Source: a virus. Taken from it: 64,000 nucleotides of DNA. The position numbers and the translations under genes were made by a program. Within the stretch, counting starts at the first letter, position 1. Every line of letters starts with the position of its first letter. Positions 1-53,562 of the stretch are shown in pieces. The DNA lies in IMG/VR virus record IMGVR_UViG_3300025840_003418, positions 32,001 to 96,000 of that record. One strand, given 5' to 3'. The notes under the pieces were generated by a model that was not told where the DNA came from, ran no database searches, and saw nothing but the letters and a program-made list of their open reading frames with translations.

Positions 1-580
1 CTAGCACATTGACAAATCCAATTAGGTGTACTGTCATACTAGCAGGTACTACATATGCAAACAAAAATAGCATAGGATCAACTGCTAATAATATTGCACA
101 ATAAGCAAATATTATTTTAAAATAATTATTAAAAATAAATTTATGCGTTTTACTACGAAATAAATCCTTAACATAACGCACAGGTATGTTTGGAACCTTC
201 CAGTCATAACCTAGCCATACTTTAATAGATTCTATTATACTAAACTTACCGTCAACGTACGGCGAATGTGGATCACCTTCTCTATCTGATTTAGAATGGT
301 GTTGACGATGCAATGCAACCCAACTTATAGTAGGACCTACTGTACTAATTACACTAATATATGTAAGAATTTTTTCAAGCCATGCATATGTTTCAAAACT
401 TCTATGTGTAAGCAGTCTATGAAGCGTTATAACGCTGCTTACGGGTCCTATAATAAACCATACAGATAATGCAACCCAGAACAAATTATATTGCTGTGTG
501 TATATTGCATACGCTACAGCAGGCACTGTTGCAATATGATTGAATGCTTGTAATAATCGTATTTTAGTATTTAAATTCAT
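1..580 (-). CDS. Membrane fatty acid desaturase (Delta9/acyl-CoA desaturase-like), 3' end outside window
   Basis: Not in ORF track; translated by hand from ATG at 580: MNLNTKIRLLQAFNH...ITLHRLLTHRSF...WVALHRQHHSKSDREGDPHSP. Has His boxes HxxxxH and HxxHH, a DPHSP motif and hydrophobic segments; ATGA overlap with upstream stop. Confidence 0.9.
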   Translation of the reverse strand, partial: MNLNTKIRLLQAFNHIATVPAVAYAIYTQQYNLFWVALSVWFIIGPVSSVITLHRLLTHRSFETYAWLEKILTYISVISTVGPTISWVALHRQHHSKSDREGDPHSPYVDGKFSIIESIKVWLGYDWKVPNIPVRYVKDLFRSKTHKFIFNNYFKIIFAYCAILLAVDPMLFLFAYVVPASMTVHLIGFVNVL

Positions 581-1197
581 TTACCTTCTTCTAATCCTAA
601 CCAAACTGTATCATCTATTATATTCGGTGACCATTCTAGCATAGCACCGTTTACTTTTTCTTGCCACACAAAATTTTGCCAACATTTTTGTACTGGATAT
701 GGACAAGTTTGTATATATCCTGCACCCTCATTCCATGCACCATTACTTGCTATATCCATATGCTTGCGCCAAACCTTCCAATATCCTTTATTCGGACGAG
801 CCTTTCTATTTTGCATAGTTATTAAATATACTTCGTAATTATTTACCGCTTCAAGCTCGTTAATAAGTTTACAAGTACATCTAAACCCATCAGTCATATC
901 TGTTGCTGTCATCCTAAAGTCAGGGAATGTATAAAGTCTATTTATTTGTTTAGCTACATTACTAGGATATCTACCGTCGTTAAAAACTCCGCCCATTACC
1001 ATAGGTTTACCGGTGCTAGTCTGATATAGTACACCGTAACCTGTGTGTTCTTCTAATTTTAAATTTTCTTTTATATAATTATTTCTAAGCCAGTTGTCTT
1101 CTTGAAGGCAGAGATCGCGCACTTCTTCAAATTCAGGAGTGCTTTCATAATAAATTTTACAGTGTGTGTCTGATAAGTCGTATCGGTATCCCATCAT
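577..1197 (-). CDS. Hypothetical protein (possibly GNAT-like fold)
   Basis: ORF track 577..1248; start moved to MMGY (1197) because a TAAATA box lies 4 nt upstream and the longer start overlaps the divergent gene; fold guess is weak. Confidence 0.6.
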   Translation of the reverse strand: MMGYRYDLSDTHCKIYYESTPEFEEVRDLCLQEDNWLRNNYIKENLKLEEHTGYGVLYQTSTGKPMVMGGVFNDGRYPSNVAKQINRLYTFPDFRMTATDMTDGFRCTCKLINELEAVNNYEVYLITMQNRKARPNKGYWKVWRKHMDIASNGAWNEGAGYIQTCPYPVQKCWQNFVWQEKVNGAMLEWSPNIIDDTVWLGLEEGK

Positions 1198-1201
1198 ATT
1201 A

Positions 1202-1215
1202 TATTTAAATAAATA
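1202..1215. promoter_or_regulatory. Back-to-back T4-late-type promoter boxes (TAAATA on both strands)
   Basis: tattta 1202-1207 (minus TAAATA); taaata 1206-1211 and 1210-1215 (plus), followed by AGGAGG SD before ATG 1236. Confidence 0.65.
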
Positions 1216-1235
1216 TTCAATAGGAGGTACAAATA

Positions 1236-1919
1236 ATGAGTACAGCATTTTTACCTATAGATTTAGACTTCACTTTACCAGACGAGCAAGATATAATTAA
1301 TTTCTGTGATAGCATCGAACCGTTAAGCGAAGAATTAGGTACTCAATGGCATACATATATAATCTACAGTAGATTAGAACAAGACTCGTGGAAAGACATT
1401 AACGTGTGTTGGCACGAAATAAAAAATAAAACAGTCTATACTGGGAAAAAAGGTAAATTCTACAACGGATTTGACACTACATTTCCTGTATTTTCTAAAC
1501 AACTTATGCAATTACCATTTAAAGATATCTCATATATTGTGCTGTTTAGGCAAAGACAAGAAGTCGGTGCTCATACTGATCGTATAGAAGGTGAAACATT
1601 AGACGATACTCTAAGCATACAAAACAATGATCCTAGAAGATTGCATCTAGAACCCAAACGCTATAATGTATTAATGACAAAATTTGATTATAAAAGTTTT
1701 TATGTATGTAAGGACGAAAAAGACACACCTATATACCCTAATATAACAAAAGAAAAACCATGTTTTGCTTTTTCCTTAGACGAACATGCACATGGTGCAA
1801 CTTATGCTGGACCAGATAAAATAATGGCATTTGTTTCTGGTTCTTTAGATGAAGAAAGACATAAAGAAATTATTAAAAGAAGTACAGAAGTAAACAAAGA
1901 TAAAATGATCGTGTTTTAA
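1236..1919 (+). CDS. Cupin/2OG-Fe(II) oxygenase-like protein, paralog family A
   Basis: HTD...HGA metal triad; shares LPIDxxxxLPxExxI, PKRYN and HGA motifs with 2550..3191 and 33203..33874; strong SD. Confidence 0.6.
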   Translation: MSTAFLPIDLDFTLPDEQDIINFCDSIEPLSEELGTQWHTYIIYSRLEQDSWKDINVCWHEIKNKTVYTGKKGKFYNGFDTTFPVFSKQLMQLPFKDISYIVLFRQRQEVGAHTDRIEGETLDDTLSIQNNDPRRLHLEPKRYNVLMTKFDYKSFYVCKDEKDTPIYPNITKEKPCFAFSLDEHAHGATYAGPDKIMAFVSGSLDEERHKEIIKRSTEVNKDKMIVF

Positions 1920-1920
1920 T

Positions 1921-2553
1921 ATGTTAGATAATGCAATAACAAAATTAAATTTTACTGTAAATCTAGATTCATTACGTGAATACTACGATACATTAGTTAA
2001 TGACTACGAGCATCTTAGATGGGCGTGGGATAAAAACGGTAACGAAATTACCGAAGAGTGGTATGACAGAATAATAAGTAACGGTATTGGGTGTACATAT
2101 CCATATGGATGGGCAATACAGAGTAATCTTATAGATAAGTCAATACCGTGTCCTCCTTATAATATAAGCATTCATCCTAGAGGACTATATGAAGACACCG
2201 AATTAATGTTTGGCCTAGTCAAAAAATTAAAAGATATGATGCCTTATACATTTAGATGGAGTATGGTAGTTCAGCCGCCTGAAGGAAAGGTATCTAGACA
2301 CGTAGATGCAGGGGATCAATATACAGCACACATACCTATATACGAAGCACCAAAAGCAGTATTCAAATTTTGGGATGAAAACGAAACACGCAAAGATTTT
2401 ACGTTTAATGCTGACGGTAGTGTGTACTTAGTTGATACTATTATATCACACGAAACAGAGAATTATAGTGATACAAATAGAGTAGGTTTAGTTTTTAGAT
2501 TTTTTAGAAAAGATTTACCAAAATTGCAAAAAATTGTAGGAGAAATAAGTTGA
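1921..2553 (+). CDS. Aspartyl/asparaginyl beta-hydroxylase-like 2OG-Fe(II) oxygenase
   Basis: HVD...HIPI...DGSVYLVDTIISHETENYSDTNR pattern (HxD...H...N...R). Confidence 0.7.
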   Translation: MLDNAITKLNFTVNLDSLREYYDTLVNDYEHLRWAWDKNGNEITEEWYDRIISNGIGCTYPYGWAIQSNLIDKSIPCPPYNISIHPRGLYEDTELMFGLVKKLKDMMPYTFRWSMVVQPPEGKVSRHVDAGDQYTAHIPIYEAPKAVFKFWDENETRKDFTFNADGSVYLVDTIISHETENYSDTNRVGLVFRFFRKDLPKLQKIVGEIS

Positions 2554-3191
2554 TATTATATACTCCAATTGATATTGAATTCGATATGCCTCCTGAACAA
2601 GATATAATAGACTGGTTTCATGAACATAAAATTAAAGACACAGACTATTGGGAGTTTTCTGAGAATCGTCATACTTGGTGTTACGTAGCACTGCGCCAAG
2701 AGCCGAAAAGCTGGTATACATACGATGCTTGGTTAGACTGGAGTAAGGAACGTAAAGCAATAGACAACACATCTTTAGTGTTTCATCCTGGATTTGAAGA
2801 TACGTTTCCAGGACTTGCTAAATGTGTAAGAGAATTACCGTTTGATCAGATAGGTACTAGTGGATTTATTATGCAAATGGGCGAAATACCAGCACACCAA
2901 GATGCAAAAACAGACCACGATGCAAGTGAACCAAGAAGATATATCATATATGTAACTGATCCTAAACATAATACGTTTTACTTAGAACATAATGGTGTTA
3001 AAATATATCCAGACATAGATGAAAAATATAGGTGTTTTGCTTTTAACAATAACGACATTCAACACGGTGCTGATCCTACTGATAGAACTAAAATATTATT
3101 AAGCACTGTTGGTATTATTAACAAACAAAAGCACGAAGAATTAATCAGCCGCAGCATTAAAAAATTTGCTAAAAAGGTTATACAAGTATGA
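2550..3191 (+). CDS. Cupin/2OG-Fe(II) oxygenase-like protein, paralog family A
   Basis: IPAHQD...HGA; N-terminus YTPIDIEFDMPPEQDII similar to 1236..1919. Confidence 0.6.
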   Translation: MILYTPIDIEFDMPPEQDIIDWFHEHKIKDTDYWEFSENRHTWCYVALRQEPKSWYTYDAWLDWSKERKAIDNTSLVFHPGFEDTFPGLAKCVRELPFDQIGTSGFIMQMGEIPAHQDAKTDHDASEPRRYIIYVTDPKHNTFYLEHNGVKIYPDIDEKYRCFAFNNNDIQHGADPTDRTKILLSTVGIINKQKHEELISRSIKKFAKKVIQV

Positions 3192-3880
3192 ACTATCTTA
3201 AAAGGTTAATAGAATTTAAAAAATCAAATATAAAAGAATATCTCGGAGTATACGGAAAAAGAAGGAAATTAGGACAGACAAATTTTAAAAAATATGCAAA
3301 CAATGCAATTTGGTTTTTTGGTTGCAGTCACGTATGGGGCATAGGTGTTGAAGATAAAGAAAACTGTGGTTATATACTCGAAAAACAATTAGGAATAAAA
3401 GTCCTAAATTTAGGTATTAACGGTGCAGGACCTATGACAGTAGCCGACGAAATAGACTCCTTGTTGAATAAAAGGTTAACACCAAAAGGAATAATTATTG
3501 CATGGCCTAGCAGCATAAGGTGGCAACATTATACAGCATTTGGTAGCAGAGTATTATGGTCACCGGCAAGACTGGACAATATATTTTATCATAATAATCA
3601 CTTTGGTTGTAAAATGTTATATCCTAAGGCATATAAAGAATATTTGAGATTATTAGCAGACGAAAGTATAATAAAAGTAAACAAAAGAGTAATAGACAAC
3701 GTGCGAGATAAGATTAAAGATATTCCTAGTATAGAATTTACATTCAATTCTAACGAAGTTCTTGACATTAATCAACTTACACCAATCCTAGATAAAGGAA
3801 AAGATAACTTGCATCCGGGTCCTTTAACGCATAAAAAAGTTGCAGATATATTAACCGAGTTAGTAAAAGAATGGAAATGA
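3188..3880 (+). CDS. SGNH/GDSL hydrolase-like protein (esterase or acyltransferase)
   Basis: FFGCSH (block I), NLGINGAG (block II), DNLHPG (block V DxxH). Confidence 0.7.
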   Translation: MNYLKRLIEFKKSNIKEYLGVYGKRRKLGQTNFKKYANNAIWFFGCSHVWGIGVEDKENCGYILEKQLGIKVLNLGINGAGPMTVADEIDSLLNKRLTPKGIIIAWPSSIRWQHYTAFGSRVLWSPARLDNIFYHNNHFGCKMLYPKAYKEYLRLLADESIIKVNKRVIDNVRDKIKDIPSIEFTFNSNEVLDINQLTPILDKGKDNLHPGPLTHKKVADILTELVKEWK

Positions 3881-4563
3881 ATTATTATTGGAATGATATT
3901 CCCGGCGAAGGCAAGTGTAGAAACAACTTAATTTACACAAGTCTTATATCAGACGATAAAAAAACATTTTGTCAATGGTACTACAACGACGAAGGATATC
4001 ACGGAGGACAAAACGAAGTAGTTGATCCTAATCTTATGCAAGAAAAGATGAATAGAGAATCATTTGGTTTAAGATTTATGAAACTAAAAGGTTATCAACA
4101 TTTAATTCCAGAGTTTACCATAAGTACCAAAGAAAAGAAAATATATTTTGATATTGACGGTATTGATTTTTGGAATAAAGCAAAATGTAATGTAGAGAAC
4201 TATAGCAAAGTTATACCTAACTGGGAACAACAAATGTTAGATATCTTACAGGCGCATAAAAATATTGGAATGTACAAGTATAGTTTACATCCGTCTAGTT
4301 ATTTTATTATAGATGGTAAATTAAAAAGTTTTAACTACTTCTTTCATTATCTGAATACAGAAGGACCAGTTAGCATTGCAAATCATGCAAGTCATATATA
4401 TAGTACACGTCAAAGTATAATGAAAGAACAAGTCGAAGCAATGGGTATAAGTTGGAACGATCCTGAACCACTAGTTGTTCTACAACATTTATGTTTTGAG
4501 AGTTTTAGAACAAATTATACAGATAGTTTTATAAATCAAGCAAAGGAAATTTATAGTGATTAA
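3871..4563 (+). CDS. Hypothetical protein, possible degenerate kinase-like fold
   Basis: 230 aa ORF coupled to neighbours; AH...LHPSSYFIIDGKLKSFNY resembles the catalytic-loop region of protein-kinase-like folds but lacks the catalytic Asp residues. Confidence 0.5.
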   Translation: MEMNYYWNDIPGEGKCRNNLIYTSLISDDKKTFCQWYYNDEGYHGGQNEVVDPNLMQEKMNRESFGLRFMKLKGYQHLIPEFTISTKEKKIYFDIDGIDFWNKAKCNVENYSKVIPNWEQQMLDILQAHKNIGMYKYSLHPSSYFIIDGKLKSFNYFFHYLNTEGPVSIANHASHIYSTRQSIMKEQVEAMGISWNDPEPLVVLQHLCFESFRTNYTDSFINQAKEIYSD

Positions 4564-5371
4564 AGGAATTAACAGTAATACATATATTGATGTAGAACCA
4601 TATATAGATATGTCTACATTTGAAAAATTACAACCTGAAATAATTCGAGGATTTGCTGAAGCAAGATGGTTTGCAAAAGAAGGCACTTGGATGAAGCCGG
4701 GTTTTGAATTTAAAGATATGAGTTATATTCTCAATTGGAAACCTATATATGCTGCAATGGAAGAATTTCAAGCACTACCAGATGATGATCCTATAAAAGT
4801 AGAAGGTATGAAAATATGGCCTACTGACTTTAAGGATTATAAACAACGTAACCTAATAACTCGTTATTTAAAGATGGCAATGGAGGCATATGATCCTTAC
4901 ATATACTATTTTTTATATGAAGAAGGCGACTGGGATGATAGACCGGGTGAGAAAAAGAAAACAGAAGAGTCTGAATACTTTCCTAATGTAATGAAATGGC
5001 TAGAAGACTTTAAAACTAATGAGATATTTGAATCATTTGGTCGTGTTATGTTCTTTCATTGCGAAGCAGATGGATTGCCGTTTGAACATAGAGATTTAGG
5101 CGCCCATAATGGTATATGGCCTAAAGATAGGTACGAGCCACACAATAACGAATTTATACATATACGTCCAGATACAAGGAATCAGTTTTATATATGGGAT
5201 CCTGATAAAAAGATGAAACACGGTATAAACACTCGCGCTGCATTCTGGAATGATCAAGACTGGCACGGTGGTAACAGAGTGATGTCGCCAACTTATGGGT
5301 TGCGCATAGACGGTAAGTTTACAGAATCATTTAGAAAACAATTAGGTATAGATCATTTAGATAATTACTAG
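4556..5371 (+). CDS. Cupin/2OG-Fe(II) oxygenase-like protein
   Basis: GRVMFF...FEHRD...WNDQDWHGG...LRIDG (HxD...H...R). Confidence 0.55.
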   Translation: MIKGINSNTYIDVEPYIDMSTFEKLQPEIIRGFAEARWFAKEGTWMKPGFEFKDMSYILNWKPIYAAMEEFQALPDDDPIKVEGMKIWPTDFKDYKQRNLITRYLKMAMEAYDPYIYYFLYEEGDWDDRPGEKKKTEESEYFPNVMKWLEDFKTNEIFESFGRVMFFHCEADGLPFEHRDLGAHNGIWPKDRYEPHNNEFIHIRPDTRNQFYIWDPDKKMKHGINTRAAFWNDQDWHGGNRVMSPTYGLRIDGKFTESFRKQLGIDHLDNY

Positions 5372-5372
5372 T

Positions 5373-6992
5373 ATGTATGATATAATATTATTTGGAGATA
5401 TGCCTGACCTAGAAACTTATTCTAGGGCTAGTGGTTCGCATAGAATTGCTACAGAATTACGTGAGCATGGTTATTCTGTTCTAGTAATCGACTTTTCAAA
5501 TTATATAAATTACGACAGGTTTTGTGAAATACTCGATCTTGCAATGAATGAAGATACATTAGCTGTAGGATTTAGTAGTACATGGTTTCCGTTTATATTA
5601 CCAGACGGATCATCAAGCCATCGAGAACCAAGTAAGCCATCTATGCGATTTAATCCAAATAGTGAAAATGAATTAGACAGTTTAAGTATGGAGTTTGCAG
5701 GACCAAACGTCGACTTATACTTTAATAAGATAAAAAGTTTATCTCCTAAGTGTAAAATTATATTAGGCGGAGCTAAGGCGTTTATGTATATTAACATTCC
5801 TGGTATAGATAATGTTTTTATCGGACATGCCGAAACGATGATAGTTGATTATATGAAAGATCTTAAAAAAGGCAATGTTGGTTCATATCCTAAAATTATT
5901 GACTATGACAAGAAAGGACAATCGCCTAGTTGGGATTTTAGGAGTAGCAGGATAGATTACGAACCAGAAGCATTTATACTTCCAAGTGAAACATTGCTTT
6001 TAGAAGTAGGACGAGGTTGCAGATTTAATTGTAAATTTTGCAGTTTTCCGCTAATAGGACAAAAACGTGTAAGTGATTATTTAAAATTTGAAGAATGTTT
6101 ATACAATGAACTAATGGATAATTGGAAACGCTTTGGTACTTGGAAGTACACAATAGTAGATGACACGTTTAATGATAGTACTGAAAAATTACAAATGGTG
6201 AAGCGTGTTGTTGATCGTTTACCGTTTAAGCCTGCATTCTGGTGCTACATGAGATTAGACATTATAGTTAATAATAGAGATCATATTCAACTTGCAAAAG
6301 ATATAGGCATAAGAGAAGTCTACTTTGGCATAGAAACACTTAATAGAGAAGCAGGTAAAGTTATTGGTAAGGGGATGGATCCCAAACGCATTACTGATAC
6401 GTTAGAAGAGTGTGCTAGGGTATGGGGTCATGATACTTGGATAATGACTGGGATGATCTGCGGGTTGCCAAAAGATACTGTAGAAGCATTTGAGAATAGT
6501 TGTAAGTATTTTGATAGACCTGATAGACCGGTAGGACACATTAACACAACACCCCTACGTATAATAAAACATACCGAGTTTACAAAACATAGATTTAACG
6601 CTGCATTTGAACTAGAAGCAGAAAAATACGGCTATGAGTTTCCATACGAAGATGTACCGTGGCGCTGGATTAAAAATGACGGAACTGATATTGATACATT
6701 TGAGAAGGCAACTGACCTTGCAGTTAAGTGGCAAAAGCGATTAGACTCTCATATAGATTTTAAACGAAATTTCTTTTATATAAGTTGTATAGACAATGAT
6801 CATTTTGATTTTAATAAACTAATGAGTTTTAAAACTGGACGCGAATATTACGAATACATGTCTGGTGTAGACGAACAACAACTTATGAAGGAACAGATTG
6901 AAGAAAAATATTTCAAGCCGCTAATTAAATTCTTGCACAAAAAATTAGTATCACTTCCTACCAGTAAGCGTGAAGATAAATTTTGTTTCTAG
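5373..6992 (+). CDS. B12-binding-type radical SAM protein
   Basis: EVGRGCRFNCKFC, DDTFND, FGIET, GKG, ICGLP; N-terminal Rossmann-like domain (HRIATELR...VLVID...ILGG). Confidence 0.85.
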   Translation: MYDIILFGDMPDLETYSRASGSHRIATELREHGYSVLVIDFSNYINYDRFCEILDLAMNEDTLAVGFSSTWFPFILPDGSSSHREPSKPSMRFNPNSENELDSLSMEFAGPNVDLYFNKIKSLSPKCKIILGGAKAFMYINIPGIDNVFIGHAETMIVDYMKDLKKGNVGSYPKIIDYDKKGQSPSWDFRSSRIDYEPEAFILPSETLLLEVGRGCRFNCKFCSFPLIGQKRVSDYLKFEECLYNELMDNWKRFGTWKYTIVDDTFNDSTEKLQMVKRVVDRLPFKPAFWCYMRLDIIVNNRDHIQLAKDIGIREVYFGIETLNREAGKVIGKGMDPKRITDTLEECARVWGHDTWIMTGMICGLPKDTVEAFENSCKYFDRPDRPVGHINTTPLRIIKHTEFTKHRFNAAFELEAEKYGYEFPYEDVPWRWIKNDGTDIDTFEKATDLAVKWQKRLDSHIDFKRNFFYISCIDNDHFDFNKLMSFKTGREYYEYMSGVDEQQLMKEQIEEKYFKPLIKFLHKKLVSLPTSKREDKFCF

Positions 6993-7508
6993 TCCTGCAT
7001 TAAATCCAGCATGCCAATTTTTTATATGCGGAAATTCATATAAATTACCCTGTTTTTCCATATAAAAGCACTCATCTTCAATTACAAAGCCTACAGCAGG
7101 TTGCGGTTTTGAGATAAACATTACAAATCTACGCATATCAACACCTTCGTCTTCCATTTCTCTATAATAATTATTAAAGATATCTGTGTGCCAAGGTGCA
7201 CAATATCCAGGATCAACACTACTTATAAAACTTCCTAAATGTTCAACACCTGCTGCTTCTGCAACTTGTAAAGAAATGCTTTTAGGAAACTGTTGATCAG
7301 GATAATAATGTTTAAACCTACATTGTCCGTTACCTAAGTATCCTGCCTTTTCCATTAAATTTACTTGATGTATATACTCCTCATGATAATGTTTACCTTC
7401 TTCGATGGGCTTTGGCCCGTATTGCTCATGTCCACCGGCTTTAACGCAAGTGTCTATAAGCGCATCTAGATCTATTCTATCTGCTAAGTTATCGATAAAA
7501 AGTTTCAT
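6951..7508 (-). CDS. 2OG-Fe(II) oxygenase-like protein, paralog family B (divergent)
   Basis: PGYCAPWHTD...RF...GNLYEF...WHAGFNAG; start set at MKLF (ATGA overlap with upstream gene). Confidence 0.65.
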   Translation of the reverse strand: MKLFIDNLADRIDLDALIDTCVKAGGHEQYGPKPIEEGKHYHEEYIHQVNLMEKAGYLGNGQCRFKHYYPDQQFPKSISLQVAEAAGVEHLGSFISSVDPGYCAPWHTDIFNNYYREMEDEGVDMRRFVMFISKPQPAVGFVIEDECFYMEKQGNLYEFPHIKNWHAGFNAGLETKFIFTLTGRK

Positions 7509-8176: not shown

Positions 8177-8181
8177 AAACA

Positions 8182-8210
8182 TATTTATATGTCTCTAATT
8201 TAAGTAAATA
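8182..8210. promoter_or_regulatory. Divergent T4-late-type promoter boxes
   Basis: tatttata 8182-8189 (minus TATAAATA); taaata 8205-8210 (plus), 4 nt before ATG 8215. Confidence 0.7.
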
Positions 8211-15641: not shown

Positions 15642-15644
15642 AAC

Positions 15645-15651: not shown

Positions 15652-15670
15652 TTTCCGTAGAGGAAATTAA

Positions 15671-29111: not shown

Positions 29112-29117
29112 CTGTTG

Positions 29118-40623: not shown

Positions 40624-40628
40624 ATATT

Positions 40629-45874: not shown

Positions 45875-46401
45875 CTATCTCTTTCCTGTAAAATAGGATC
45901 TGTTGTAGGCCACTCTATTCTAAATCGAGGATCGTTCCACTTAATAACACCTTGATTCTTTTCGTCTACATAGTCGCCTTCGTAGAACATATTATAATGG
46001 AATATACAATCTGTTAGTGCATAGTGACCGTTAGCGTACCCAGGAGGTATTAAAACTTGATCTCTAGTCTTTTCTGATAGTATATAAGATTCCCACTTAC
46101 CTGTTTTAAGATCAAGAACAACTAAATAGATATCACCTACAAGAGCTTGTACAAGTTTATAAGTCTTATCATCATAATGCAAGCCTCTTAATACACCTTT
46201 GTAAGACTTACTAAATCTTCCGTGAACTTCGCTGTCTTTAGAAATAATTTCTGTTACAGGATGGTCGCTAGAATGATAAGTTGTAAAAATTTCTCCTCTG
46301 TATTCACGATATACAGAAGGTTTATAAATTGGAACTTGTTTGCCAAACGTATTAAGATGCGAAACTATCCATTCGTTCCATTTTTGATTTTTATAGCTCA
46401 T
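45871..46401 (-). CDS. rmlC: dTDP-4-dehydrorhamnose 3,5-epimerase
   Basis: RG.IF, S.SYKGVLRGLH, KLV....G.I..V.LDL, IPPGYANG, WNDP...IEWP. Confidence 0.85.
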   Translation of the reverse strand: MSYKNQKWNEWIVSHLNTFGKQVPIYKPSVYREYRGEIFTTYHSSDHPVTEIISKDSEVHGRFSKSYKGVLRGLHYDDKTYKLVQALVGDIYLVVLDLKTGKWESYILSEKTRDQVLIPPGYANGHYALTDCIFHYNMFYEGDYVDEKNQGVIKWNDPRFRIEWPTTDPILQERDR

Positions 46402-47767
46402 TTGCTTTTGCTTCCAAGAAATTTACAAAGTCTTTAGTTAAAGGCTCTGACTCGTAAATCTTTATTAAGTGCTCTCTATTGTGTTCTAAAATATCTTGCA
46501 TTTCCCAATACCATGTATATATTTCATCTTCGGACATTTCGCATAATCGTTTGACTTCTGAAACTATCATTTTTAAACGCTTGTGTGCAACTTTTTCATT
46601 ATCATACGACTCGTCTATCCAAGGACTAAAAGTTTTAAATCCTAAATCTCTTAAATGCTGTAATGCACCCTTGAAAGAAAAGAAAAAGAAAGGATGATAG
46701 TTTCCTATCGGTTTAAAAACTTTTTCAGTTAATGATTTATGATCTCCATGATAGTATGTTTCTGTGCATATATAAAAATAACTATTTCTATAAGGTTCTC
46801 GTGTTCGATCAGTCCATGCACTTACAGTATTCATAGTAGTATCGGGCTCGTCGGCAAGTTTTTTTGGAAATAAATTAACCAATGACTCTGTTTCGACATC
46901 GTAATCTAAACTCCATTCAATCTTAACATGTTTTAACATTTGATCATTTAGCGAGGTTTTTTCAGATAGATAACTCCAATCACCGCGATCTAAAATTTGT
47001 TCACAATATAAAGAATACAGAAGTGCTTGTCGATGATTTCTAGGACTTTTTATTTTCATTAAAAATCTAAAAGGACGTTTTCTACTTTTTTCTAACTCTG
47101 AATCCCATCGACCAGTTTTTGAATAATATTTACTACTGTTCCACATAACAAACGGCCAATCACGCACTTGAATCTTTCGTTCATGGGGTTCAAACCATTC
47201 ATCGTATATCTTATGGCCATTATGTGTATTAAACACTAAAATAATTTGACTCGGTGGAATATAGGACGATTCTAAACATTTATGTAAATTTTCATATTCA
47301 TGTTTTTCGATATAATTTTCCTGAGCTAAATCTAGAATTATAGTACATTTTTTGTTTTGAGCATCTTCTAATGCTTCTTGCGACATATACTTCCAAAAAT
47401 AATTACCATTAAGTTTTGAAAATTGCCTAACTCCATGTGCTGCAAACTGATCTAAATGAGGACTTATCTTAACAACATAAAAATAATGACTACACTTTTG
47501 TTTTCCTTCGAATAATGAAGTATGTTTTATACTAGTTACTTCTTCTAAAGCATTTAAATTTGTTACTGTCCAACTGTTAGGCCAGTCTCCTAACTGATTA
47601 TTAAATATCTGTCTACTAATATTAGATTCGCTAGGGTCAGTATAGGCGTTAAATCCGTTGCTTATATTATGTTGAGAGTGCATGTAATTCAACACAGCAT
47701 GATTACTTTCTAAAGCATTAGGTAAAAAATATCCCGGGAAAACATAGTCATATAAAAAGTATATCAT
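46391..47767 (-). CDS. Putative GT-B glycosyltransferase-like protein (GT10-like C-terminal motif)
   Basis: HR, ICTET...LTEKVFKPI...HPF....GALQHLRDLGFKTFSPWIDESYD; paralog of 43228..44541. Confidence 0.5.
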   Translation of the reverse strand: MIYFLYDYVFPGYFLPNALESNHAVLNYMHSQHNISNGFNAYTDPSESNISRQIFNNQLGDWPNSWTVTNLNALEEVTSIKHTSLFEGKQKCSHYFYVVKISPHLDQFAAHGVRQFSKLNGNYFWKYMSQEALEDAQNKKCTIILDLAQENYIEKHEYENLHKCLESSYIPPSQIILVFNTHNGHKIYDEWFEPHERKIQVRDWPFVMWNSSKYYSKTGRWDSELEKSRKRPFRFLMKIKSPRNHRQALLYSLYCEQILDRGDWSYLSEKTSLNDQMLKHVKIEWSLDYDVETESLVNLFPKKLADEPDTTMNTVSAWTDRTREPYRNSYFYICTETYYHGDHKSLTEKVFKPIGNYHPFFFFSFKGALQHLRDLGFKTFSPWIDESYDNEKVAHKRLKMIVSEVKRLCEMSEDEIYTWYWEMQDILEHNREHLIKIYESEPLTKDFVNFLEAKANEL

Positions 47768-49155
47768 ATAGTATTTTTCCATTTATGATATTCTTCTTCC
47801 ATTTCAGGAAACGTTTTAAGAAAATTAGTTCCACGTCTTCTATCATGCTCATCAACAAATCTAATTAAATTTTTTCTATGATTAATTACATGGGGTTTTG
47901 TTTCGTGTTCTTCGTCGATGTATGTTGTTATTTCATATATACGTCTAAACTTTTCGGCTTCCCAATTAAAGAATTTCCTATTAGCTGATTCGTACCAGCC
48001 GTTGTTTTCTATGTTATCGTATACTAAAGAAACCTGATCATATATATATCTTCTAAACTTTGCAGGCATAATATCAACTGCTTGATATCCAGGATGTCTC
48101 AAATAAGGAACATCAAGTATCATAGGCATGTGCTTAGCCTGCCAACCGCCGTATGTATCTTTAATTTCTAATATATCTTTAATAAGATTTTTAAAACTAA
48201 ACAAACTTAAAAAGTTATATGTTGCCATATTAGTAAATGTACAATTTGGAACTTCAGTTAATACTTTGTTTATATTATCTAACCATTTGTTGTAGTCTAG
48301 TCCGTGTCTAATGTATTCTGCTTGTGCTCCTGTAGCTTCAGCACTTGTAAATATTTTAAATTTCTTAACCTTGCCTTCGCTACAGATTATTTTAATTTTT
48401 TCCATAAAGCGATTAAACACTCCGTCTGGAACACACATATTACTGTTGACAGCAAACTCTAGGTCTGGTCTAGGATTTTCTATAAGATCGTCTAGTACTC
48501 GAAATGTATCTTTAGAAAGTAATGGCTCGCCGCCTGTAATACGGAAATGTTTGAGATCCTTTGATACATCGGGCCACCATTTCCAAAATGCTTCTACATA
48601 AGGATTGTAATCTTTATTTGGAATAGGCATAACACCTTGATCTTTAAGCCAATCAATACCGCCATGCGCAGTTGTAGTTGGATACGGTCCGTATTTCTGA
48701 ACTTCTTCCATCCATTTACTACTAACTTGTGGTGAACAGTATGAGCATTTGAAATTACACACACTACTAAAACTTACTTCTAAATAACTAGGATTAACAT
48801 TATCATCCCAAGGTTTTTGAATAATTTCTGGAATATAAGATTCAGCCCAGGGTTCTTTGGACTTATATGTTCTATCACTTATTTCGTTATTGTCTTCTAC
48901 ACGCCAACAATAGTCACACTCTTTAGGCCTATCACCTTCGAGCATTTGCTTACGTTGTAACTTCTTAAATTTTGTATTATGTAATGCACTAGAATTACCT
49001 TCTAATTCTTCAACAGGTATTTTGTGAGGTACTGGATGATGACAACTATGCGTCTGTCCGGTATGTAGGTGTAGTGTAACTTGTTTCCACTTAGCTACAC
49101 AAAAACTGCAACTAACAGGATCTAGATTTTCTTTTTTCCATACTTCAGGTGTCAT
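47764..49155 (-). CDS. Radical SAM protein with N-terminal twitch-like Cys domain
   Basis: FCVAKW...SCHH...ECDYCW, then CNFKCSYC, TGGEP, NSN. Confidence 0.9.
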   Translation of the reverse strand: MTPEVWKKENLDPVSCSFCVAKWKQVTLHLHTGQTHSCHHPVPHKIPVEELEGNSSALHNTKFKKLQRKQMLEGDRPKECDYCWRVEDNNEISDRTYKSKEPWAESYIPEIIQKPWDDNVNPSYLEVSFSSVCNFKCSYCSPQVSSKWMEEVQKYGPYPTTTAHGGIDWLKDQGVMPIPNKDYNPYVEAFWKWWPDVSKDLKHFRITGGEPLLSKDTFRVLDDLIENPRPDLEFAVNSNMCVPDGVFNRFMEKIKIICSEGKVKKFKIFTSAEATGAQAEYIRHGLDYNKWLDNINKVLTEVPNCTFTNMATYNFLSLFSFKNLIKDILEIKDTYGGWQAKHMPMILDVPYLRHPGYQAVDIMPAKFRRYIYDQVSLVYDNIENNGWYESANRKFFNWEAEKFRRIYEITTYIDEEHETKPHVINHRKNLIRFVDEHDRRRGTNFLKTFPEMEEEYHKWKNTI

Positions 49156-50074
49156 TATTATCCTCAATTAAAAATGGTTCTTTGTTTATTCTTTTTGGCA
49201 CTTGATAAACTGTTTTAAAAAATTTACTTTGTTGATCACTTAGTGGAGATATTGATATCGGAATATTTAATTCTTTTATCAAAGTTTTACCTAAATCCTG
49301 TATTGTAGACATTAGTGTTTCATCAGTAACTTCTAATTGGTTCCAAAAATTATTCAAATACGAAAAGTCACGTACATTTATAAAGTTCCAGTCTGTACAC
49401 ATTGTCATATACAACCCCTGTCTTGCACCAAATATCGCCCATAGTCCGTTTTCTACATCTGCACCGATCATTTGCCAAATATAAAGTCTATGTAAATTTT
49501 GCCAATATCCGTCATACAGTTTACTTGTATCAGGCTTCATTCCCTGATCAAGTGACATCTTAACACCTTCACGAAAACCAGCACGCCATGCTTGCTGTGG
49601 AGTTGCATTATTATACACATCACTAAAAGTAGTATTCATTTGGATATAGCGCATGTCCCAACAAAAGTCAACTTGACCTTGCGGATTTCCTGGTTCAGCA
49701 TTTTCATGTGTACGCATATTGAGAACATAACTCTTTGGCCAACATTTAAGTCCGCCATTTCCATATACTAATCCGTTTATAACATTTTTTCCACACCAAC
49801 TAACAACACTATGATCTAACTGTGCTTCAGGTTTAAAATTTATAATTTGTTGTATATAATTAGCATATACTATATTGTCAGCATCTACAGTTATAAATCT
49901 ATCAGTTTCGCTTAATTCTGCGCAAGCCTTGTGTGCAGCATCCGAGCCTTCTACTCCGTGGACACGTTTAGCCCATGGTATTTTACTACACAAGTCTGCA
50001 TAGTTTTTTTCTGCGTTGGGCTCGTCGTAACTTAAAAAGATAACATCATAGTCTGCTACTTTAATTGAATTCAT
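49145..50074 (-). CDS. GT-A-fold glycosyltransferase-like protein
   Basis: DVIFLSYDEPNA, GS..AHKACA, VDAD (DxD), YGNGGLKCW, AWRAGFRE. Confidence 0.65.
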   Translation of the reverse strand: MNSIKVADYDVIFLSYDEPNAEKNYADLCSKIPWAKRVHGVEGSDAAHKACAELSETDRFITVDADNIVYANYIQQIINFKPEAQLDHSVVSWCGKNVINGLVYGNGGLKCWPKSYVLNMRTHENAEPGNPQGQVDFCWDMRYIQMNTTFSDVYNNATPQQAWRAGFREGVKMSLDQGMKPDTSKLYDGYWQNLHRLYIWQMIGADVENGLWAIFGARQGLYMTMCTDWNFINVRDFSYLNNFWNQLEVTDETLMSTIQDLGKTLIKELNIPISISPLSDQQSKFFKTVYQVPKRINKEPFLIEDNNDT

Positions 50075-50958
50075 TTTACTACCTCATATCTATAATTACG
50101 ATAAAGTCGTGGTGTAAATATCGAAAGATTTTCTTCTTCTGATTTGTACATGTACGGAAATATGCACTTTGTCTTGTCTATTAAATCTTTAATTGGTATT
50201 TCAATAGTCCGAATTAGTATGTTAGGATCATCGGGCTCAGTGATAAAAAACATAACAACCTTATCAGTAATTTCCTTGTCTAACAATTTTTCATTTACAA
50301 CAATATCTTTAGTGCTATAAAATTGCCATTGTTTTGCAATATCATTTTTAAAAATATATACACTAGTGTCATCAGACGAATTTATCATATACAACTGATT
50401 GTCAACTAAAACTTTATGTCCTTTTCTATTTTTTCGTGCCATTAAAGGAATAGATTTTTTATCTACTGATACTATATTTTCAAGAAATAGTTCAGCAGTG
50501 TCTAACGTATCTTCAACAGTAAAATCTTTATGAAGTTTGTATACATTATTATTAGCCCAAACGTGATCGCCTTTATAAAACAAATCAGTTGCGTTATGTT
50601 TTCTAAAATCTATACCAACGTATATCTTTTCTAGGTTGTCAAATGTATTACCTTTAAATGGAATTTGATAAAGGTAATCTTCAACTGATTTTAAAAAACT
50701 AGTTGCAACCTCTCTAGCGATTACGTATTCTCTAAGTTGATGATTATATTTTACTACATATTCGCTAATTTTTGCTCTACCTAAAAAATATTCTTTTACT
50801 TCGTCATGATTAACTTCAATAACATCATAATCGCTATCTATAGGGTTATTTGTAATGTCAAAGACTTCGCCATGTGTTTTTTCAAAATACACATAACTTA
50901 TATCTCCTTGTGCTATTAAACTGTTTAATTTTGTTATTGCATTAATTAAATTAGACAT
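50071..50958 (-). CDS. Hypothetical protein carrying one copy of a CBM5/12-like repeat
   Basis: YKGDHVWANNNVY segment matches the repeats in 50951..52384. Confidence 0.55.
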   Translation of the reverse strand: MSNLINAITKLNSLIAQGDISYVYFEKTHGEVFDITNNPIDSDYDVIEVNHDEVKEYFLGRAKISEYVVKYNHQLREYVIAREVATSFLKSVEDYLYQIPFKGNTFDNLEKIYVGIDFRKHNATDLFYKGDHVWANNNVYKLHKDFTVEDTLDTAELFLENIVSVDKKSIPLMARKNRKGHKVLVDNQLYMINSSDDTSVYIFKNDIAKQWQFYSTKDIVVNEKLLDKEITDKVVMFFITEPDDPNILIRTIEIPIKDLIDKTKCIFPYMYKSEEENLSIFTPRLYRNYRYEVVK

Positions 50959-52384
50959 AAGTTATTTCCTTGTATTTGTTAAATACTTTTTCGACAAAGT
51001 CTTTTTCGGTATAATGCAATATACCATTTTGTACAAAATTTCCTAACTTTAAATTACAATTGTCATCTAAATATACGCCTAATTTATCTTGCCACCTATC
51101 TGGCGGATTGTTCCAGCCTTGTATCATCGGCTTTAAGTGTGTAAATGTAAGAATATTGTTTTTCTTATTTGTAACTTCTTCTTCTATATTAAGTATTTTT
51201 ATTGCAATTGCTGCTGCGACATCTATACTCAAATGTCCGGGTGTTTGATTAGGTAGAAACTCTTTCCAAAACTCTTTCCAATTCTTACAAATAATTTCTA
51301 GTAAATTATAAAAGTTTTTTGCTAGATCTGATTGTTTAAAATAATGTACCCCAACGTATGTGTTAGGCAAATAGTTTTCGGTAAATGTCTTTCGGTAAAA
51401 ATCATTTTCAATTACGTTATTATTAAATGTTCTTACTTCAGATGTAAAGAATAAATCTGAATCACTTAACATATTCCACGTACTAGTAAGATCATTAAAC
51501 ACCATCATATCAGTGTCCATTACAATTGTTTCATCATACGGACTACAGTGATAGATTTTCCATCTATTTTCAACTTTCCAAATAGTTGTTTCAGCATCAT
51601 CACCAAAGGGAATAGGAATAATTTTGTCAAACAATATCTCATAATCTGCAGGAACAATATCGTTAGTAATAATTGATATTTTTTCATTAGGACTATTTTT
51701 ACTTAGAGACAGTGCTAATAACACAGCCTGTTTAACATAGTCTACTTGTAGTACAGGATCAACTGTATATAAATTATTATAATAACACACTAAATTGCCC
51801 GGCCGTGGGTTTTCAAATACTAAACTTTTGTTACTGTCTGCATACAATTTAACTTCTTGATCAATAATAGGCTCGTAATCGTCTTCAGTAAACTCACTAT
51901 TTGCTGGTACGTCAACTAAAGCACGCCACACTCTGTTATTATGCCAAACATGTTGACCTGCTAAATGTAAAACTTCTTTATACCAAATATCAATGTTAAC
52001 TCCTTCAAATTGAGGAGTCAGTGTATATAATTGTGTTTCATCTTCTTTACGCACTTCGTAAATATTATTATCAGATAATACAATATTATTCTTTTTACAC
52101 AAGTGATGTACAACAAGATCGTTTTTGTCATAGTGTATATAGACTTCAGGTATTACTAATTTTACATCATCATAATTAAATGTTTTAGACTGTAAACAAG
52201 TATTAACAAATCTAAAGACTTTATTATCATACCAAACATGCTGACCAGATATATAGTCGAGATCCGGATACCATATATCTACATGAATACCTCTGTATTG
52301 CTCTTCGAGGAAATGATTAGGTATTTGTCTCGATACTCTTTCATAACTATTTTGTGCTAAAACTATTATACCTCTATTGCTCAT
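50951..52384 (-). CDS. GT-A glycosyltransferase (GT8/mannosyltransferase-like) with ~200 aa duplicated insert
   Basis: DYVKQA..LALS, FDKII, SPYDETIVMDTD (DxD), ILHY; insert with two GQHVW repeats. Confidence 0.75.
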   Translation of the reverse strand: MSNRGIIVLAQNSYERVSRQIPNHFLEEQYRGIHVDIWYPDLDYISGQHVWYDNKVFRFVNTCLQSKTFNYDDVKLVIPEVYIHYDKNDLVVHHLCKKNNIVLSDNNIYEVRKEDETQLYTLTPQFEGVNIDIWYKEVLHLAGQHVWHNNRVWRALVDVPANSEFTEDDYEPIIDQEVKLYADSNKSLVFENPRPGNLVCYYNNLYTVDPVLQVDYVKQAVLLALSLSKNSPNEKISIITNDIVPADYEILFDKIIPIPFGDDAETTIWKVENRWKIYHCSPYDETIVMDTDMMVFNDLTSTWNMLSDSDLFFTSEVRTFNNNVIENDFYRKTFTENYLPNTYVGVHYFKQSDLAKNFYNLLEIICKNWKEFWKEFLPNQTPGHLSIDVAAAIAIKILNIEEEVTNKKNNILTFTHLKPMIQGWNNPPDRWQDKLGVYLDDNCNLKLGNFVQNGILHYTEKDFVEKVFNKYKEITYV

Positions 52385-53216
52385 TAATTACTCTTTCTAG
52401 ACTAAATTTATTCATTATATGAACACTTTTTCCTTTAGTACTTAATGCTAGATATTCTCCTAAGTATTTTGGTCGTTCAACCAAAAATTGCATATAATCA
52501 TCATTAATTTCTAAACATATATCTTTATCAATTGTATAATAATGCGTACCTGGTAATTCTTGTACACAACTATCAAGTCCATCAAAACCATTAAGAATAT
52601 GTGCTGCAATACTAAATGCAAAGTCATTTCTAAATAACGGAGAGTCAATTTGATACACTCGCCTGTAATGAGGCCAATTATCTTGTATGTGTGAAATTAG
52701 ATCAAAGAATATTTTATTTGATTCAGTCTTTGTAAAATATACTACAGTTGCCCAATAAAAATCAACACCACACTCACTTATGTACTTAAACTCTGCTTCA
52801 CTACGTGTTCCTGATAAATCTTTTGCATTTTTAAACATCATTAAATCATATTGACTGTCAAAACAGGATTTAAATAAATCATTAGAAATAATATAATCTG
52901 TATCTAATAACAATGTGCTATCGTATGGAGATAGATCATATGCTTGTGCTCTGCCTGCATTTTTAAAAGGAAGTTTTTTGTGTGTTAAAGTACCATCAAA
53001 GTAAAATCTATTATTCTGGACAACTTCCCATGCTGTAGGAATAATCTTATCAAATATTCCTCGGTCAAAACTTTCTACTAAGTAGTCTGGAGAATCAGTA
53101 ACTATACTAGTAGGAATATTTAAATACTTCTGTATACGTTTTGCTAAAAATTGTGCTTGATTTACATAATCAAGCGATCCGTTATTTCTTGCAAATAGTA
53201 ATGCGCCTTTAGTCAT
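52374..53216 (-). CDS. GT-A glycosyltransferase (GT8/mannosyltransferase-like)
   Basis: DYVNQA, FDKII, LSPYDSTLLLDTD (DxD), RND.AF.IA, H.MNK. Confidence 0.75.
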   Translation of the reverse strand: MTKGALLFARNNGSLDYVNQAQFLAKRIQKYLNIPTSIVTDSPDYLVESFDRGIFDKIIPTAWEVVQNNRFYFDGTLTHKKLPFKNAGRAQAYDLSPYDSTLLLDTDYIISNDLFKSCFDSQYDLMMFKNAKDLSGTRSEAEFKYISECGVDFYWATVVYFTKTESNKIFFDLISHIQDNWPHYRRVYQIDSPLFRNDFAFSIAAHILNGFDGLDSCVQELPGTHYYTIDKDICLEINDDYMQFLVERPKYLGEYLALSTKGKSVHIMNKFSLERVINEQ

Positions 53217-53562
53217 TTTCTATTAATTTTTCTACCGAACGTTTTTTACCCAATGCTACATAACTGTTATGATAATCGTTAGAAGCTTCAAAGTAAATAT
53301 CTAAAATATCTTCTAAAAACTTAGACAAGTCTGGTATCATTACTGGACGATCGTTGTCATCAGTCAAAACAACGTCAGTATCTGCACCTTGCTTTACTAG
53401 TAAATCTATAAATGTAATTAACTCTCGTGTAATAGTAAACTGAGAACCTTCAGTAAAATATATTAAACTTTCTTTAAACTTTTCTTGAAGAATACGTTTT
53501 TGATTATTGATCGTAACCATATACTTGCTAAAGTCAAGGGCTTTTTCTAATCTTTCGTCCAT
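53209..53562 (-). CDS. Hypothetical protein (possible fibre-assembly or chaperone-like protein)
   Basis: AGGAGG SD before MDERLEK; first gene downstream of the structural block; function is a guess from position. Confidence 0.6.
   Translation of the reverse strand: MDERLEKALDFSKYMVTINNQKRILQEKFKESLIYFTEGSQFTITRELITFIDLLVKQGADTDVVLTDDNDRPVMIPDLSKFLEDILDIYFEASNDYHNSYVALGKKRSVEKLIEND

Follow-up and report, generated by a model that had tools for sequence, protein, structure and literature searches.

The closest described counterparts of the locus analysed here are found in marine T4-like phages, namely pelagimyophages and cyanomyophages, in which a hypervariable island known as the host recognition cluster (HRC) carries tail fibre genes, glycosyltransferases, rfaE and radical S-adenosylmethionine (SAM) cassettes; in pelagimyophages it averages 44.6 kb (Zaragoza-Solas et al. 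2020, PMC7029224). The T4-like environmental viral genome TARA_ERS488813_N000010 contains 12 radical SAM genes (Nishimura et al. 2017, PMC5332604), and in a cyanophage paper a radical SAM gene is grouped with genes for an aminotransferase and an amidinotransferase. The stretch analysed here, referred to as the window, is a 64,000-nt segment (positions 32,001 to 96,000) of the IMG/VR virus record IMGVR_UViG_3300025840_003418. Positions 1 to 53,592 of the window, together with about 0.8 kb to the left, form a tail-fibre-linked accessory island of a T4-like jumbo phage, and with 14 radical SAM genes over at least 53 kb this is an unusually large phage island. It consists of a conserved core enlarged by two inserts and a variable left arm (o1 to o11). 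At a probability of about 0.4, the reading preferred here is that the island encodes a late cytoplasmic pathway that would build and edit a variable glycan, probably on the virion. A preliminary description of this DNA had proposed an island of tailoring enzymes beside the tail fibre genes; it was mostly right in what it observed, with inflated counts, and its interpretation is plausible. Its statement that a pathway of this size was undescribed went too far, as HRCs and the T4-like genome with 12 radical SAM genes are in print (PMC7029224, PMC5332604).

The whole record (designated G000) is a single linear contig of 127,599 bp with a CheckV completeness of 33%, and a related viral contig of 331,570 bp (G001, completeness 93%) was used alongside it. 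In the window, 69 main open reading frames (ORFs; o1 to o69) were taken, with o1 to o62 making up the island. The ORFs are tightly packed, the biggest intergenic gap being 157 nt; GC content is even (0.28 to 0.38) over the island and its flanks, and the window contains no N and no tRNA. The island continues beyond the left edge of the window to about 31.2 kb of G000, and its enzyme part stops at 53,592. The left flank holds replication genes, namely a DNA polymerase (phrog_262, 1e-197) and an HNH endonuclease, plus a fibre-like ORF (G000 29746-31203). On the right, tail fibres o65 to o67, a 4723-aa ORF, a baseplate wedge gene (phrog_10646, 3e-286) and a hub/lysozyme protein gene follow directly, so that the contiguity with fibre and baseplate genes noted in the preliminary description is borne out. 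The closest polymerase relatives (42 to 50% identity) are from phages of 350 to 490 kb, and the contig is a fragment of an uncultured estuarine/marine T4-like jumbo phage. No close copy of o16 was found in isolated phages (best match, 23.5% identity). At least 14 DNA runs with freshwater, estuary, salt marsh or seawater labels contain 96 to 99% of the words sampled from window positions 22466-32212.

Among the findings that the preliminary description had named as fatal to its reading is that the contig is an assembly chimera of a phage contig and a cellular biosynthetic cluster. Core genes do have cellular homologues in Bdellovibrionota. Against a chimera stand the even GC content and the presence of the island inside the 331-kb phage contig G001, where it occupies 239.5-282.6 kb (about 43 kb) with 15 radical SAM genes and with homologues in G000 for 35 of its 49 ORFs. 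The gene order from o20 to o55 is repeated nearly identically in other viral contigs (L005/L006 and L165/L166, 90-98% identity). A separate 25.8-kb DNA contig from a public run, which is perhaps not independent of the source sample, spans 20 kb of the island (window 14001-34000) with 13 differences. Viral and bacterial o40 sequences lie on opposite sides of a long branch. A chimera can thus practically be set aside.

The layout of the island became apparent on comparing relatives, as did the sharing of its core with Bdellovibrionota; the preliminary description was silent on both. In viral contigs, o40 has at least 584 relatives (80 kept, 77-100% identical); for o16, metagenome proteins yield 4149 relatives at E≤1e-10 (120 listed at ≥72% identity). 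Presence was counted over 30 related loci of at least 15 kb, with matches covering over half of the query. The genes o39, o40 and o41 are present in all 30 loci, o17 in 29 (a count that may include paralogues), o13 and o14 in 28, o16 in 26 and o12 in 17. The core comprises seven radical SAM genes (o13 to o17, o40 and o57), the genes for the glycosyltransferase A (GT-A)-fold proteins o41 and o58, the methyltransferase gene o39, the PP-loop gene o12, and o60 to o62. In the relatives, the order o58-o57...o41-o40-o39-o17-o16-o15 / o14-o13-o12 spans about 10 kb. By comparison, o18 to o38 and o42 to o55 occur in 0 to 4 of the 30 loci, the o52/o56 family apart: the o18-o26 unit in 0 to 3, the amidinotransferase cassette in 4, and the sugar cassette, again leaving the o52/o56 family aside, in 0 to 1. 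Insert 1 here is 19.5 kb (o18 to o38) between o17 and o39, and insert 2 is 11.6 kb (o42 to o56) between o41 and o57. The o41-o57 junction (window 36111-47764) is an insertion hotspot, being 37 bp long in 5 of 18 loci and holding 2.5 to 7.7 kb of differing genes, often including extra radical SAM genes, in the other 13.

Three further viral records of 137-165 kb (G002, G003 and G005; 83-100% complete) have 7 to 9 radical SAM genes each, partly clustered. The o40 query found no homologue in them, and their radical SAM sets therefore differ from the core described here. Radical-SAM-rich blocks exist in at least two forms in aquatic phages.

Of the 69 main ORFs, exactly 14 contain the motif CxxxCxxC (o9, o13 to o17, o30 to o32, o35, o36, o40, o51 and o57), and all 14 match PF04055 at E<1e-4, in agreement with the number first reported. 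With hmmscan, 11 of the 14 pass the curated cut-off of 29.5 bits, and o32, o35 and o57 are just under it; in a six-frame search 13 of the 14 were above the cut-off, o35 being under it in both searches. The six-frame PF04055 search of the whole 127.6-kb record found no radical SAM gene beyond these 14. They fall into six B12-type genes (o9, o30 to o32, o35 and o51), three members of NF033640 (N_Twi_rSAM; o13, o16 and o57) and five shorter genes (o14, o15, o17, o36 and o40). Against the NF033640 cut-off of 170 bits, o13, o16 and o57 score 326, 396 and 337 bits, with full-length matches (model positions 1-2 to 397 of 398), and each has a Cys-rich "twitch" domain N-terminal to the radical SAM core; o17 and o40 give weak partial matches to this model. 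In the B12-type group, the B12-binding domain PF02310 is above its cut-off in o51 only (37.6 vs 32.1) and below it in o30, o32 and o35, and o9 and o31 are tied to the group by paralogy alone. No NCBIfam equivalog cut-off was attained by the B12-type ORFs.

Enzymes of these kinds would also suit direct editing of virion proteins, with C-methylation, hydroxylation, cross-links or epimerisation in the manner of peptides that are made ribosomally and modified post-translationally (RiPPs) and with sugars in a minor role. SPASM/twitch and B12-type radical SAM proteins and Asp/Asn beta-hydroxylase-like proteins are classic peptide and protein modifiers, RiPP maturase models are among the weak NCBIfam matches, and Ser/Thr, Asn/Asp and Gly abound in the neighbouring fibre-like proteins. 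All RiPP maturase models listed scored under their cut-offs, in searches of which none was aimed at a RiPP recognition element as such, and among eight small ORFs (20-79 aa, mostly outside the main ORFs, with gaps of at most 157 nt) there was no convincing precursor candidate. Protein editing also leaves the sugar-nucleotide and GT-A-fold genes unaccounted for, and is judged improbable.

The evidence for a glycan-directed pathway comes from the GT-A-fold proteins, the sugar cassette and the neighbouring genes for an amidinotransferase and an aminotransferase. The o41/o58 family is assigned by Foldseek to the GT-A (nucleotide-diphospho-sugar transferase) fold from AlphaFold2 models (pLDDT 92), with an invariant D-x-D (D58, D60); o58 is a paralogue of o41 (BLASTP; hhalign 100%), and the o57/o58 order is kept in relatives. 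For o41/o58, 28 Foldseek matches were obtained at E≤1e-3, and those listed are almost all glycosyltransferases (E 1e-4 to 3e-3). The fold of the methyltransferase o39 was assigned in the same way (pLDDT 91). For the o60/o61 profile, 19 of 20 Protein Data Bank (PDB) matches are to glycogenin, and these are weak (E 0.017-0.08); o52/o56 give a lead only, to GT10 (ESM Atlas score 0.79). About seven glycosyltransferase-like genes had been counted previously. The fold is shown for o41 and o58, and o60, o61, o52 and o56 are weak candidates, which makes that count too high.

The accessory sugar cassette encodes a haloacid dehalogenase (HAD) phosphatase-like protein resembling capsule phosphatases, a WbuC-like cupin (o43), an rfaE-I-like kinase, an rfaE-II-like adenylyltransferase, a pyruvate-dehydrogenase-E1-like thiamine-diphosphate pair (E1-beta-like o46 and E1-alpha-like o53), a short-chain dehydrogenase/reductase (SDR; o49), an RmlC-like protein (o55) and a B12-type radical SAM protein (o51, HpnJ-like). 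The sugar-nucleotide enzymes in it (o42 to o46, o49, o53 and o55) all score under the NCBIfam cut-offs (rfaE_dom_I, 99.6 vs 345; rfaE_dom_II, 92.9 vs 181.5; heptose_epim, 57 vs 275), the SDR o49 scores higher as GalE/RmlB than as HldD, and a GmhA isomerase was not identified among the island ORFs in the NCBIfam comparison.

Several single-gene assignments of the preliminary description hold: two methyltransferases (o28 and o39), the amidinotransferase o33, the aminotransferase o34, the nitroreductase o18 (PF00881, 6e-10), the PP-loop protein o12 (by motif) and the sugar enzymes listed above. The SGGADS motif of o12 is nearly invariant among 14 homologues, and its weak profile matches are to ThiI, NAD synthetase, Asn synthetase and LarE. 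The amidinotransferase o33 has no Pfam match at E<0.01 and matches seven PDB sequences (9e-23 to 1e-12), among them HsvA (5wpi, 9e-23), StrB1 (1bwd, 5e-18), AGAT and SxtG. Upstream of it, the block o30 to o32 has 104 relatives in viral contigs. Oxygenase-like ORFs had been put at about 14, of which nine are supported: o29 (2OG-FeII_Oxy_5, 4e-15) and eight Asp/Asn-hydroxylase-like ORFs (o4, o10, o11, o20 to o23 and o25) joined by weak Pfam matches and an iterative hidden Markov model (HMM) search. Three more ORFs, the desaturase-like o1 and two cupins (o43 and o55), might be counted with these nine, and o8 is a lead only (ESM Atlas, Asp_Arg_Hydrox cluster, score 0.95).

Five ORFs had been described as SGNH-like. 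They do form one family (o6, o24, o37, o54 and, more weakly, o47; hhalign 86-99.9%) with an N-terminal G-C-S, a C-terminal His, and G-C-S, N, S and two His as invariants, and their SGNH membership was not demonstrated. The sole Pfam match is that of o54 to PF00657 (E 0.0025, below cut-off), a search of G000 with PF13472 (GDSL_2) returned nothing, and the family profile had no PDB match.

A further reading is that the island makes a small molecule during infection that is not attached to a macromolecule, such as a cofactor or an aminoglycoside- or nucleoside-like metabolite with guanidino and C-methyl groups. The resemblance of o33 to StrB1, HsvA and SxtG speaks for it, as do the weak likenesses of o35 to KedN5 and of o51 to HpnJ/AprD4; pathways for antibiotic sugars often include an E1-like pair, an SDR, an RmlC-like protein and a class III aminotransferase; and the cyanophage paper labels a similar trio "antibiotic synthesis genes". 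Pfam and hydropathy searches of the window ORFs showed no exporter, resistance or regulator gene, the GT-A-fold genes are core (30 of 30 relatives) and the amidino and sugar cassettes rare accessories, and position and promoter motif are held in common with the fibre genes. A free small molecule is thus distinctly unlikely as the product.

The promoter motif in question is TAAATA, found within 60 nt upstream of 14 of the 69 genes (3.2 expected), among them o63, o65 and o68 and, in the island, nine genes that head a unit or an internal unit; its sharing by island and fibre genes, already noted in the preliminary description, thus stands. We take this box to resemble the T4 late promoter core. 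A hydropathy scan found several hydrophobic segments in only 1 of the 69 ORFs (o1), the other proteins being soluble, and with Pfam it gave no candidate among the window ORFs for an initiating phosphoglycosyltransferase, flippase, polymerase, ligase, ABC transporter or exporter. As o1 is alone in having several hydrophobic segments and no flippase, polymerase, initiating transferase or exporter was found, the chemistry is probably cytoplasmic. Consistent with the preliminary description, no family of nonribosomal peptide synthetases or polyketide synthases, transporters, regulators or replication proteins was matched among o1 to o62, an absence that is weak evidence because 27 of these 62 ORFs have no Pfam match.

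These observations also bear on whether the target is the host envelope. Unusual activated sugars, or edited lipid A or O-antigen precursors, could be displayed by the flippase, polymerase and ligase of the host, and the changed surface of the infected cell would exclude superinfection or have a receptor blocked. One member of the Asp/Asn-hydroxylase family is the lipid A hydroxylase LpxO; the rfaE-like, capsule-phosphatase-like and WbuC-like matches are typical of lipopolysaccharide and capsule loci; and bacteria keep the module described below with no homologue of the phage baseplate wedge in the five module-bearing genomes tested. The same reading is in print for the glycosyltransferases and rfaE of pelagimyophage HRCs (PMC7029224). 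The missing candidates for envelope assembly and export, with one multiply hydrophobic ORF in 69, and the late-type promoter boxes common to island and fibre genes count against it, and a surface change made late in the lytic cycle has little time to act. Remodelling of the host envelope, with either of these effects on the cell surface, is considered unlikely.

DNA hypermodification, in which the products would be glycosylated or amino-alkylated bases, was considered as well. Glycosyltransferases, pyridoxal-phosphate enzymes and radical SAM enzymes of phages occur in DNA-modification clusters. No member of the thymidylate-synthase/hydroxymethylase family (ThyA, PF00303) was found in either G000 or G001 (completeness 33% and 93%), the island adjoins fibre genes and is not grouped with the replication genes, and 14 radical SAM genes are far above the number in any DNA-modification cluster known to us. 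Modified DNA is a highly improbable outcome of this gene set.

In the preferred reading, a glycan built and edited in the cytoplasm, soluble enzymes would act late in infection. Activated sugars would be made and then transferred by the GT-A-fold proteins, and the sugars would be edited by radical C-H chemistry, C-methylation, hydroxylation, amination with amidination, amidation and O-acylation. Insert 1 holds a hydroxylase array and three or four B12-type radical SAM genes with the amidinotransferase and aminotransferase genes, a combination that suggests C-methylation and amine formation followed by that of a guanidino group. Insert 2 may supply an activated sugar, possibly of heptose type or branched; E1-like pairs occur in deoxysugar pathways, which is the basis for the idea of a branched sugar. 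The left arm adds more oxygenase-like genes and one B12-type radical SAM gene. The product would be a strain-variable glycan, varying as surface structures do, and the acceptor would most likely be the phage's own fibre or other virion proteins, which are favoured because of where the island lies, the promoter motif held in common with the fibre genes, the solubility of the GT-A-fold enzymes and the absence of export genes. The data show the gene content, the protein families and folds, their conservation, the arrangement as core and cassettes, solubility and the enrichment of the promoter box; we infer every single reaction, the order in which they take place, that the product is a glycan, and what accepts it. 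The preliminary description had suggested late modification of a macromolecule, and a late cytoplasmic decoration of glycan type fits the phage context, the late-type boxes and the soluble sugar-nucleotide and GT-fold enzymes.

Several points weigh against a virion glycan. Neither an acceptor nor a product was identified. Twitch/SPASM and B12-type radical SAM proteins, Asp/Asn hydroxylases and class III aminotransferases fit peptide or small-molecule pathways equally well. The conserved core and the G001 island are without the sugar-nucleotide cassette (o42 to o56 are absent from G001). The glycosyltransferase evidence is moderate, with a TM score of about 0.4 and a fold class that includes sugar nucleotidyltransferases (HddC at rank 21). 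No Pfam glycosyltransferase family was matched by o41/o58, and neither PF01501 (GT8; E≤0.1) nor PF13472 had a match in G000. PF00852 (GT10) was silent in G000 and in the control genomes too, so this result carries no information. All function-level NCBIfam matches, NF033640 excepted, are under cut-off, and 27 of 62 island ORFs (33 of all 69) have no Pfam match at E<0.01. Over window positions 14001-34000, split into 30 bins, three RNA libraries gave contigs that cover 27, 26 and 21 bins, mostly at ≥99% identity; these contigs are compatible with DNA carry-over and uninformative on timing.

Relatives of the core genes are also found in bacteria. A scan of 185,579 species genomes with a four-sequence N-twitch alignment gave 197 relatives, of which 74 loci were kept, 58 of them with Bdellovibrionota-type names in the record titles; a scan of genome contigs with the single o16 sequence returned nothing. 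A recurring bacterial module contains o39, o41/o58, o16, o17 and o40 with tandem N-twitch copies. Among the 74 loci, o40 is present in 25 (about 52% identity) and o39, o41 and o58 in 14 each, and o16 is 46-50% identical to Bdellovibrionota proteins. The bacterial loci also have B12-type radical SAM genes and occasionally an amidinotransferase or desaturase-like gene, and some lie on contigs of 0.9-3 Mb. In a sample of 301 Bdellovibrionota genomes, o40 was present in 15. A quick o40 tree split 42 viral from 16 bacterial sequences by a long branch (SH-aLRT 90), which argues for old sharing and not for recent transfer. On one 936-kb Bdellovibrionia contig (L096 and L111, 635.8-671.3 kb), at least 12 CxxxCxxC ORFs of the phage's families lie within about 35 kb, adjoining GT-A-like and methyltransferase-like genes.

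A broader idea is that the N-twitch and companion radical SAM proteins are a new glycan-editing class with which an abundant group of uncultured jumbo phages and, separately, the predatory Bdellovibrionota decorate their own fibres for recognising host or prey with strain-variable glycans; this is rather doubtful. If it were true, glycan tailoring would extend to C-methylation, hydroxylation, guanidinylation and acylation, and virion glyco-diversity would be a hidden layer of host range and defence evasion. On the preferred reading, widespread uncultured giant phages would spend 10-15% of their genomes on radical chemistry for surface decoration. To our knowledge and in the literature searched, radical SAM editing of glycans on virions or cell surfaces has not been described. 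The searches, which had subscription journals and supplements outside their coverage, also gave no paper on the conserved core or the Bdellovibrionota link, or on the chemistry of NF033640/N-twitch radical SAM proteins. As the seven core families, NF033640 among them, are without a known reaction, these families are a compact source of new enzymology, and the core-plus-cassette layout with the Bdellovibrionota module offers a small conserved gene set, plus variable cassettes to compare.

The coordinates of all features are given in Table 1.

Table 1. Genes of the window, with positions, strand and main evidence
Feature	Position in window	Strand	Evidence or remark
o1, fatty-acid-desaturase-like membrane di-iron protein	2..580 (G000 31810-32580)	-	PF00487, 4.4e-11
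o2, no assigned family; o3 and o5, paralogue family A (with o38); o4, Asp/Asn-hydroxylase-like	577..3191		BLASTP paralogy
o6, GCS-motif SGNH-like family; o7 and o8, no assigned family	3188..5371	+	hhalign o6~o54, 96.7%
o9, B12-type (class B-like) radical SAM	5373..6992	+	PF04055, 1e-14; paralogue of o30-32
o10 and o11, Asp/Asn-hydroxylase-like cupins	6951..8182	-	Weak Pfam matches, paralogy, iterative HMM
o12, PP-loop ATPase-like, core	8215..8886	+	SGGADS motif at residue 15
o13, N-terminal-twitch radical SAM, core	8834..10138	+	NF033640; SPASM-type match, residues 22-82
o14 and o15, short radical SAM proteins, core	10122..11925	+ (o14), - (o15)	PF04055, 1e-12 and 8e-13
o16, N-terminal-twitch radical SAM, core	11922..13304	-	NF033640, 396 bits
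o17, radical SAM, core	13297..14379	-	PF04055, 1.6e-7; adjoins o16 in bacterial loci
o18, nitroreductase; o19 and o26, no assigned family; o20-o23 and o25, hydroxylase-like; o24, GCS-motif SGNH-like	14422..20046	+	
o27, no Pfam domain; o28, SAM methyltransferase; o29, 2-oxoglutarate (2OG)-Fe(II) oxygenase	20204..22415	-	
o30, o31 and o32, tandem B12-type radical SAM paralogues	22466..26834	+	44-49% mutual identity
o33, amidinotransferase	26831..27901	+	phmmer vs PDB
o34, class III (omega) aminotransferase	27867..29105	-	PF00202, 7.5e-42; no NCBIfam cut-off attained
o35, B12-type radical SAM, KedN5-like; o36, radical SAM with N-terminal Zn ribbon	29115..32212	+	
o37, GCS-motif SGNH-like; o38, family A	32231..33874	+	hhalign o24~o37, 99.9%; BLASTP
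Core trio: o39, class I SAM methyltransferase fold; o40, radical SAM; o41, GT-A fold	33856..36111	-	
o42-o56, accessory sugar cassette	36101..47782	-	Includes SGNH-like o47 and o54; o48, o50, o52 and o56, no assigned family
o57, N-terminal-twitch radical SAM; o58, GT-A fold; both core	47764..50074	-	NF033640, 337 bits
o59 and o62, no assigned family; o60 and o61, GT8-like candidates, D-T-D motif	50071..53592	-	All kept in G001
o63 and o64; tail fibres o65-o67; o68; start of 4723-aa ORF o69	53629..64000	-	Pfam, BLASTP

Some further details concern single genes. The first ORF, o1, extends past the left edge of the window, and its homologues adjoin N-twitch radical SAM genes in four bacterial loci. 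The match of o4 to PF05118 (1.9e-4) is below cut-off, and o4 is linked to o11 and o20 to o25 by the iterative HMM search; o20 to o23 and o25 are tandem hydroxylase-like paralogues. In G001, o7 and o8 are kept at 53% and 65%. Every NCBIfam match of o9 is far under cut-off, and the best matches of o14 and o15, also below cut-offs, are STM4011- and viperin-like. The assignment of o35 as a KedN5-like C-methyltransferase comes from NF033712 (155 bits vs a cut-off of 700), and o36 matches PF23545 (1.8e-13) as well as PF04055 (2.5e-15). Sequence and profile searches of the PDB gave no usable match for o26, o27, o50, o56, the o39 profile or the o41/o58 profile, the ESM Atlas contained no structure for o8 or o56, and hhalign across 35 ORF families gave no links besides those reported.

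Within the enzyme island, o27 (window 20204-21160) encodes a Gly/Thr/Ser-rich protein of 318 aa with 27 homologues in 5.8 billion proteins. It matches no Pfam family and nothing in phage records, isolated phages included, and could be structural rather than enzymatic.

In the right flank, o63 and o64 are paralogous and resemble fibres in their composition (Ser+Thr 17-25%, Gly about 10%). The tail fibre proteins o65, o66 and o67 (window 55619-61434) have homologous N-terminal parts of about 180-330 aa (33-39% identity) and differing distal parts, with a Collar domain present in o67. Over 36-41 nt, o67 (window about 60168-60208) is 95-97% identical to tail fibre genes of cyanophages P-SSM2, P-SSM5 and S-PRM1; a megablast search of phage records with the fibre region found nothing besides these matches. 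The 4723-aa ORF is on the minus strand (G000 94074-108245) between the tail fibre genes and the baseplate wedge gene, and its C-terminal 641 aa, which lie in the window (62074-64000), have no Pfam match. In the replication flank, a 274-aa ORF (G000 1707-2531) contains CxxxCxxC and has neither a PF04055 match at E≤0.01 nor a PHROG match.

Compared with known systems, o13, o16 and o57 are members of the NF033640 family by score, the family itself being without an assigned reaction. The polytopic membrane proteins of a Wzx/Wzy or ABC polysaccharide locus were not found here by hydropathy or Pfam. The ADP-heptose pathway (GmhA, HldE, GmhB and HldD) has possible counterparts in kinase-, adenylyltransferase- and phosphatase-like ORFs lying together with an SDR about 2 kb off in the cassette, and differs in that all scores are below the NCBIfam cut-offs, GmhA was not identified and the SDR is nearer to GalE/RmlB. 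As in streptidine-type pathways, o33 matches the amidinotransferases StrB1 and HsvA and adjoins an aminotransferase, but the partner here is class III and not DegT-type, and the cassette is rare (4 of 30 loci). Among viral glycosyltransferases, A64R of PBCV-1 (PDB 2p72/2p6w) is likewise a small soluble GT-A protein and is among the Foldseek matches of o41 (ranks 38 and 47); we know of no radical SAM or oxygenase tailoring in the virion glycosylation of PBCV-1 or mycobacteriophages.

The genome TARA_ERS488813_N000010 likewise has a double-digit number of radical SAM genes, which are filed under Fe-S metabolism in the paper, with no pathway or island described (PMC5332604). The moraphages (PMC12619734) are a different lineage that falls outside the T4 group. 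The island is most like an HRC, as a large hypervariable island of similar size among structural genes of marine T4-like phages (PMC7029224). Its cassettes differ between relatives, and it has tail fibres on the right and a fibre-like ORF on the left, in keeping with the HRC as a hypervariable region with tail fibres. HRCs lie between VrlC and the neck gene gp14. The left flank of the present island is a replication module. The locus described here belongs to a jumbo phage and has a conserved core of seven radical SAM genes, which the inserts and left arm raise to a total of 14.

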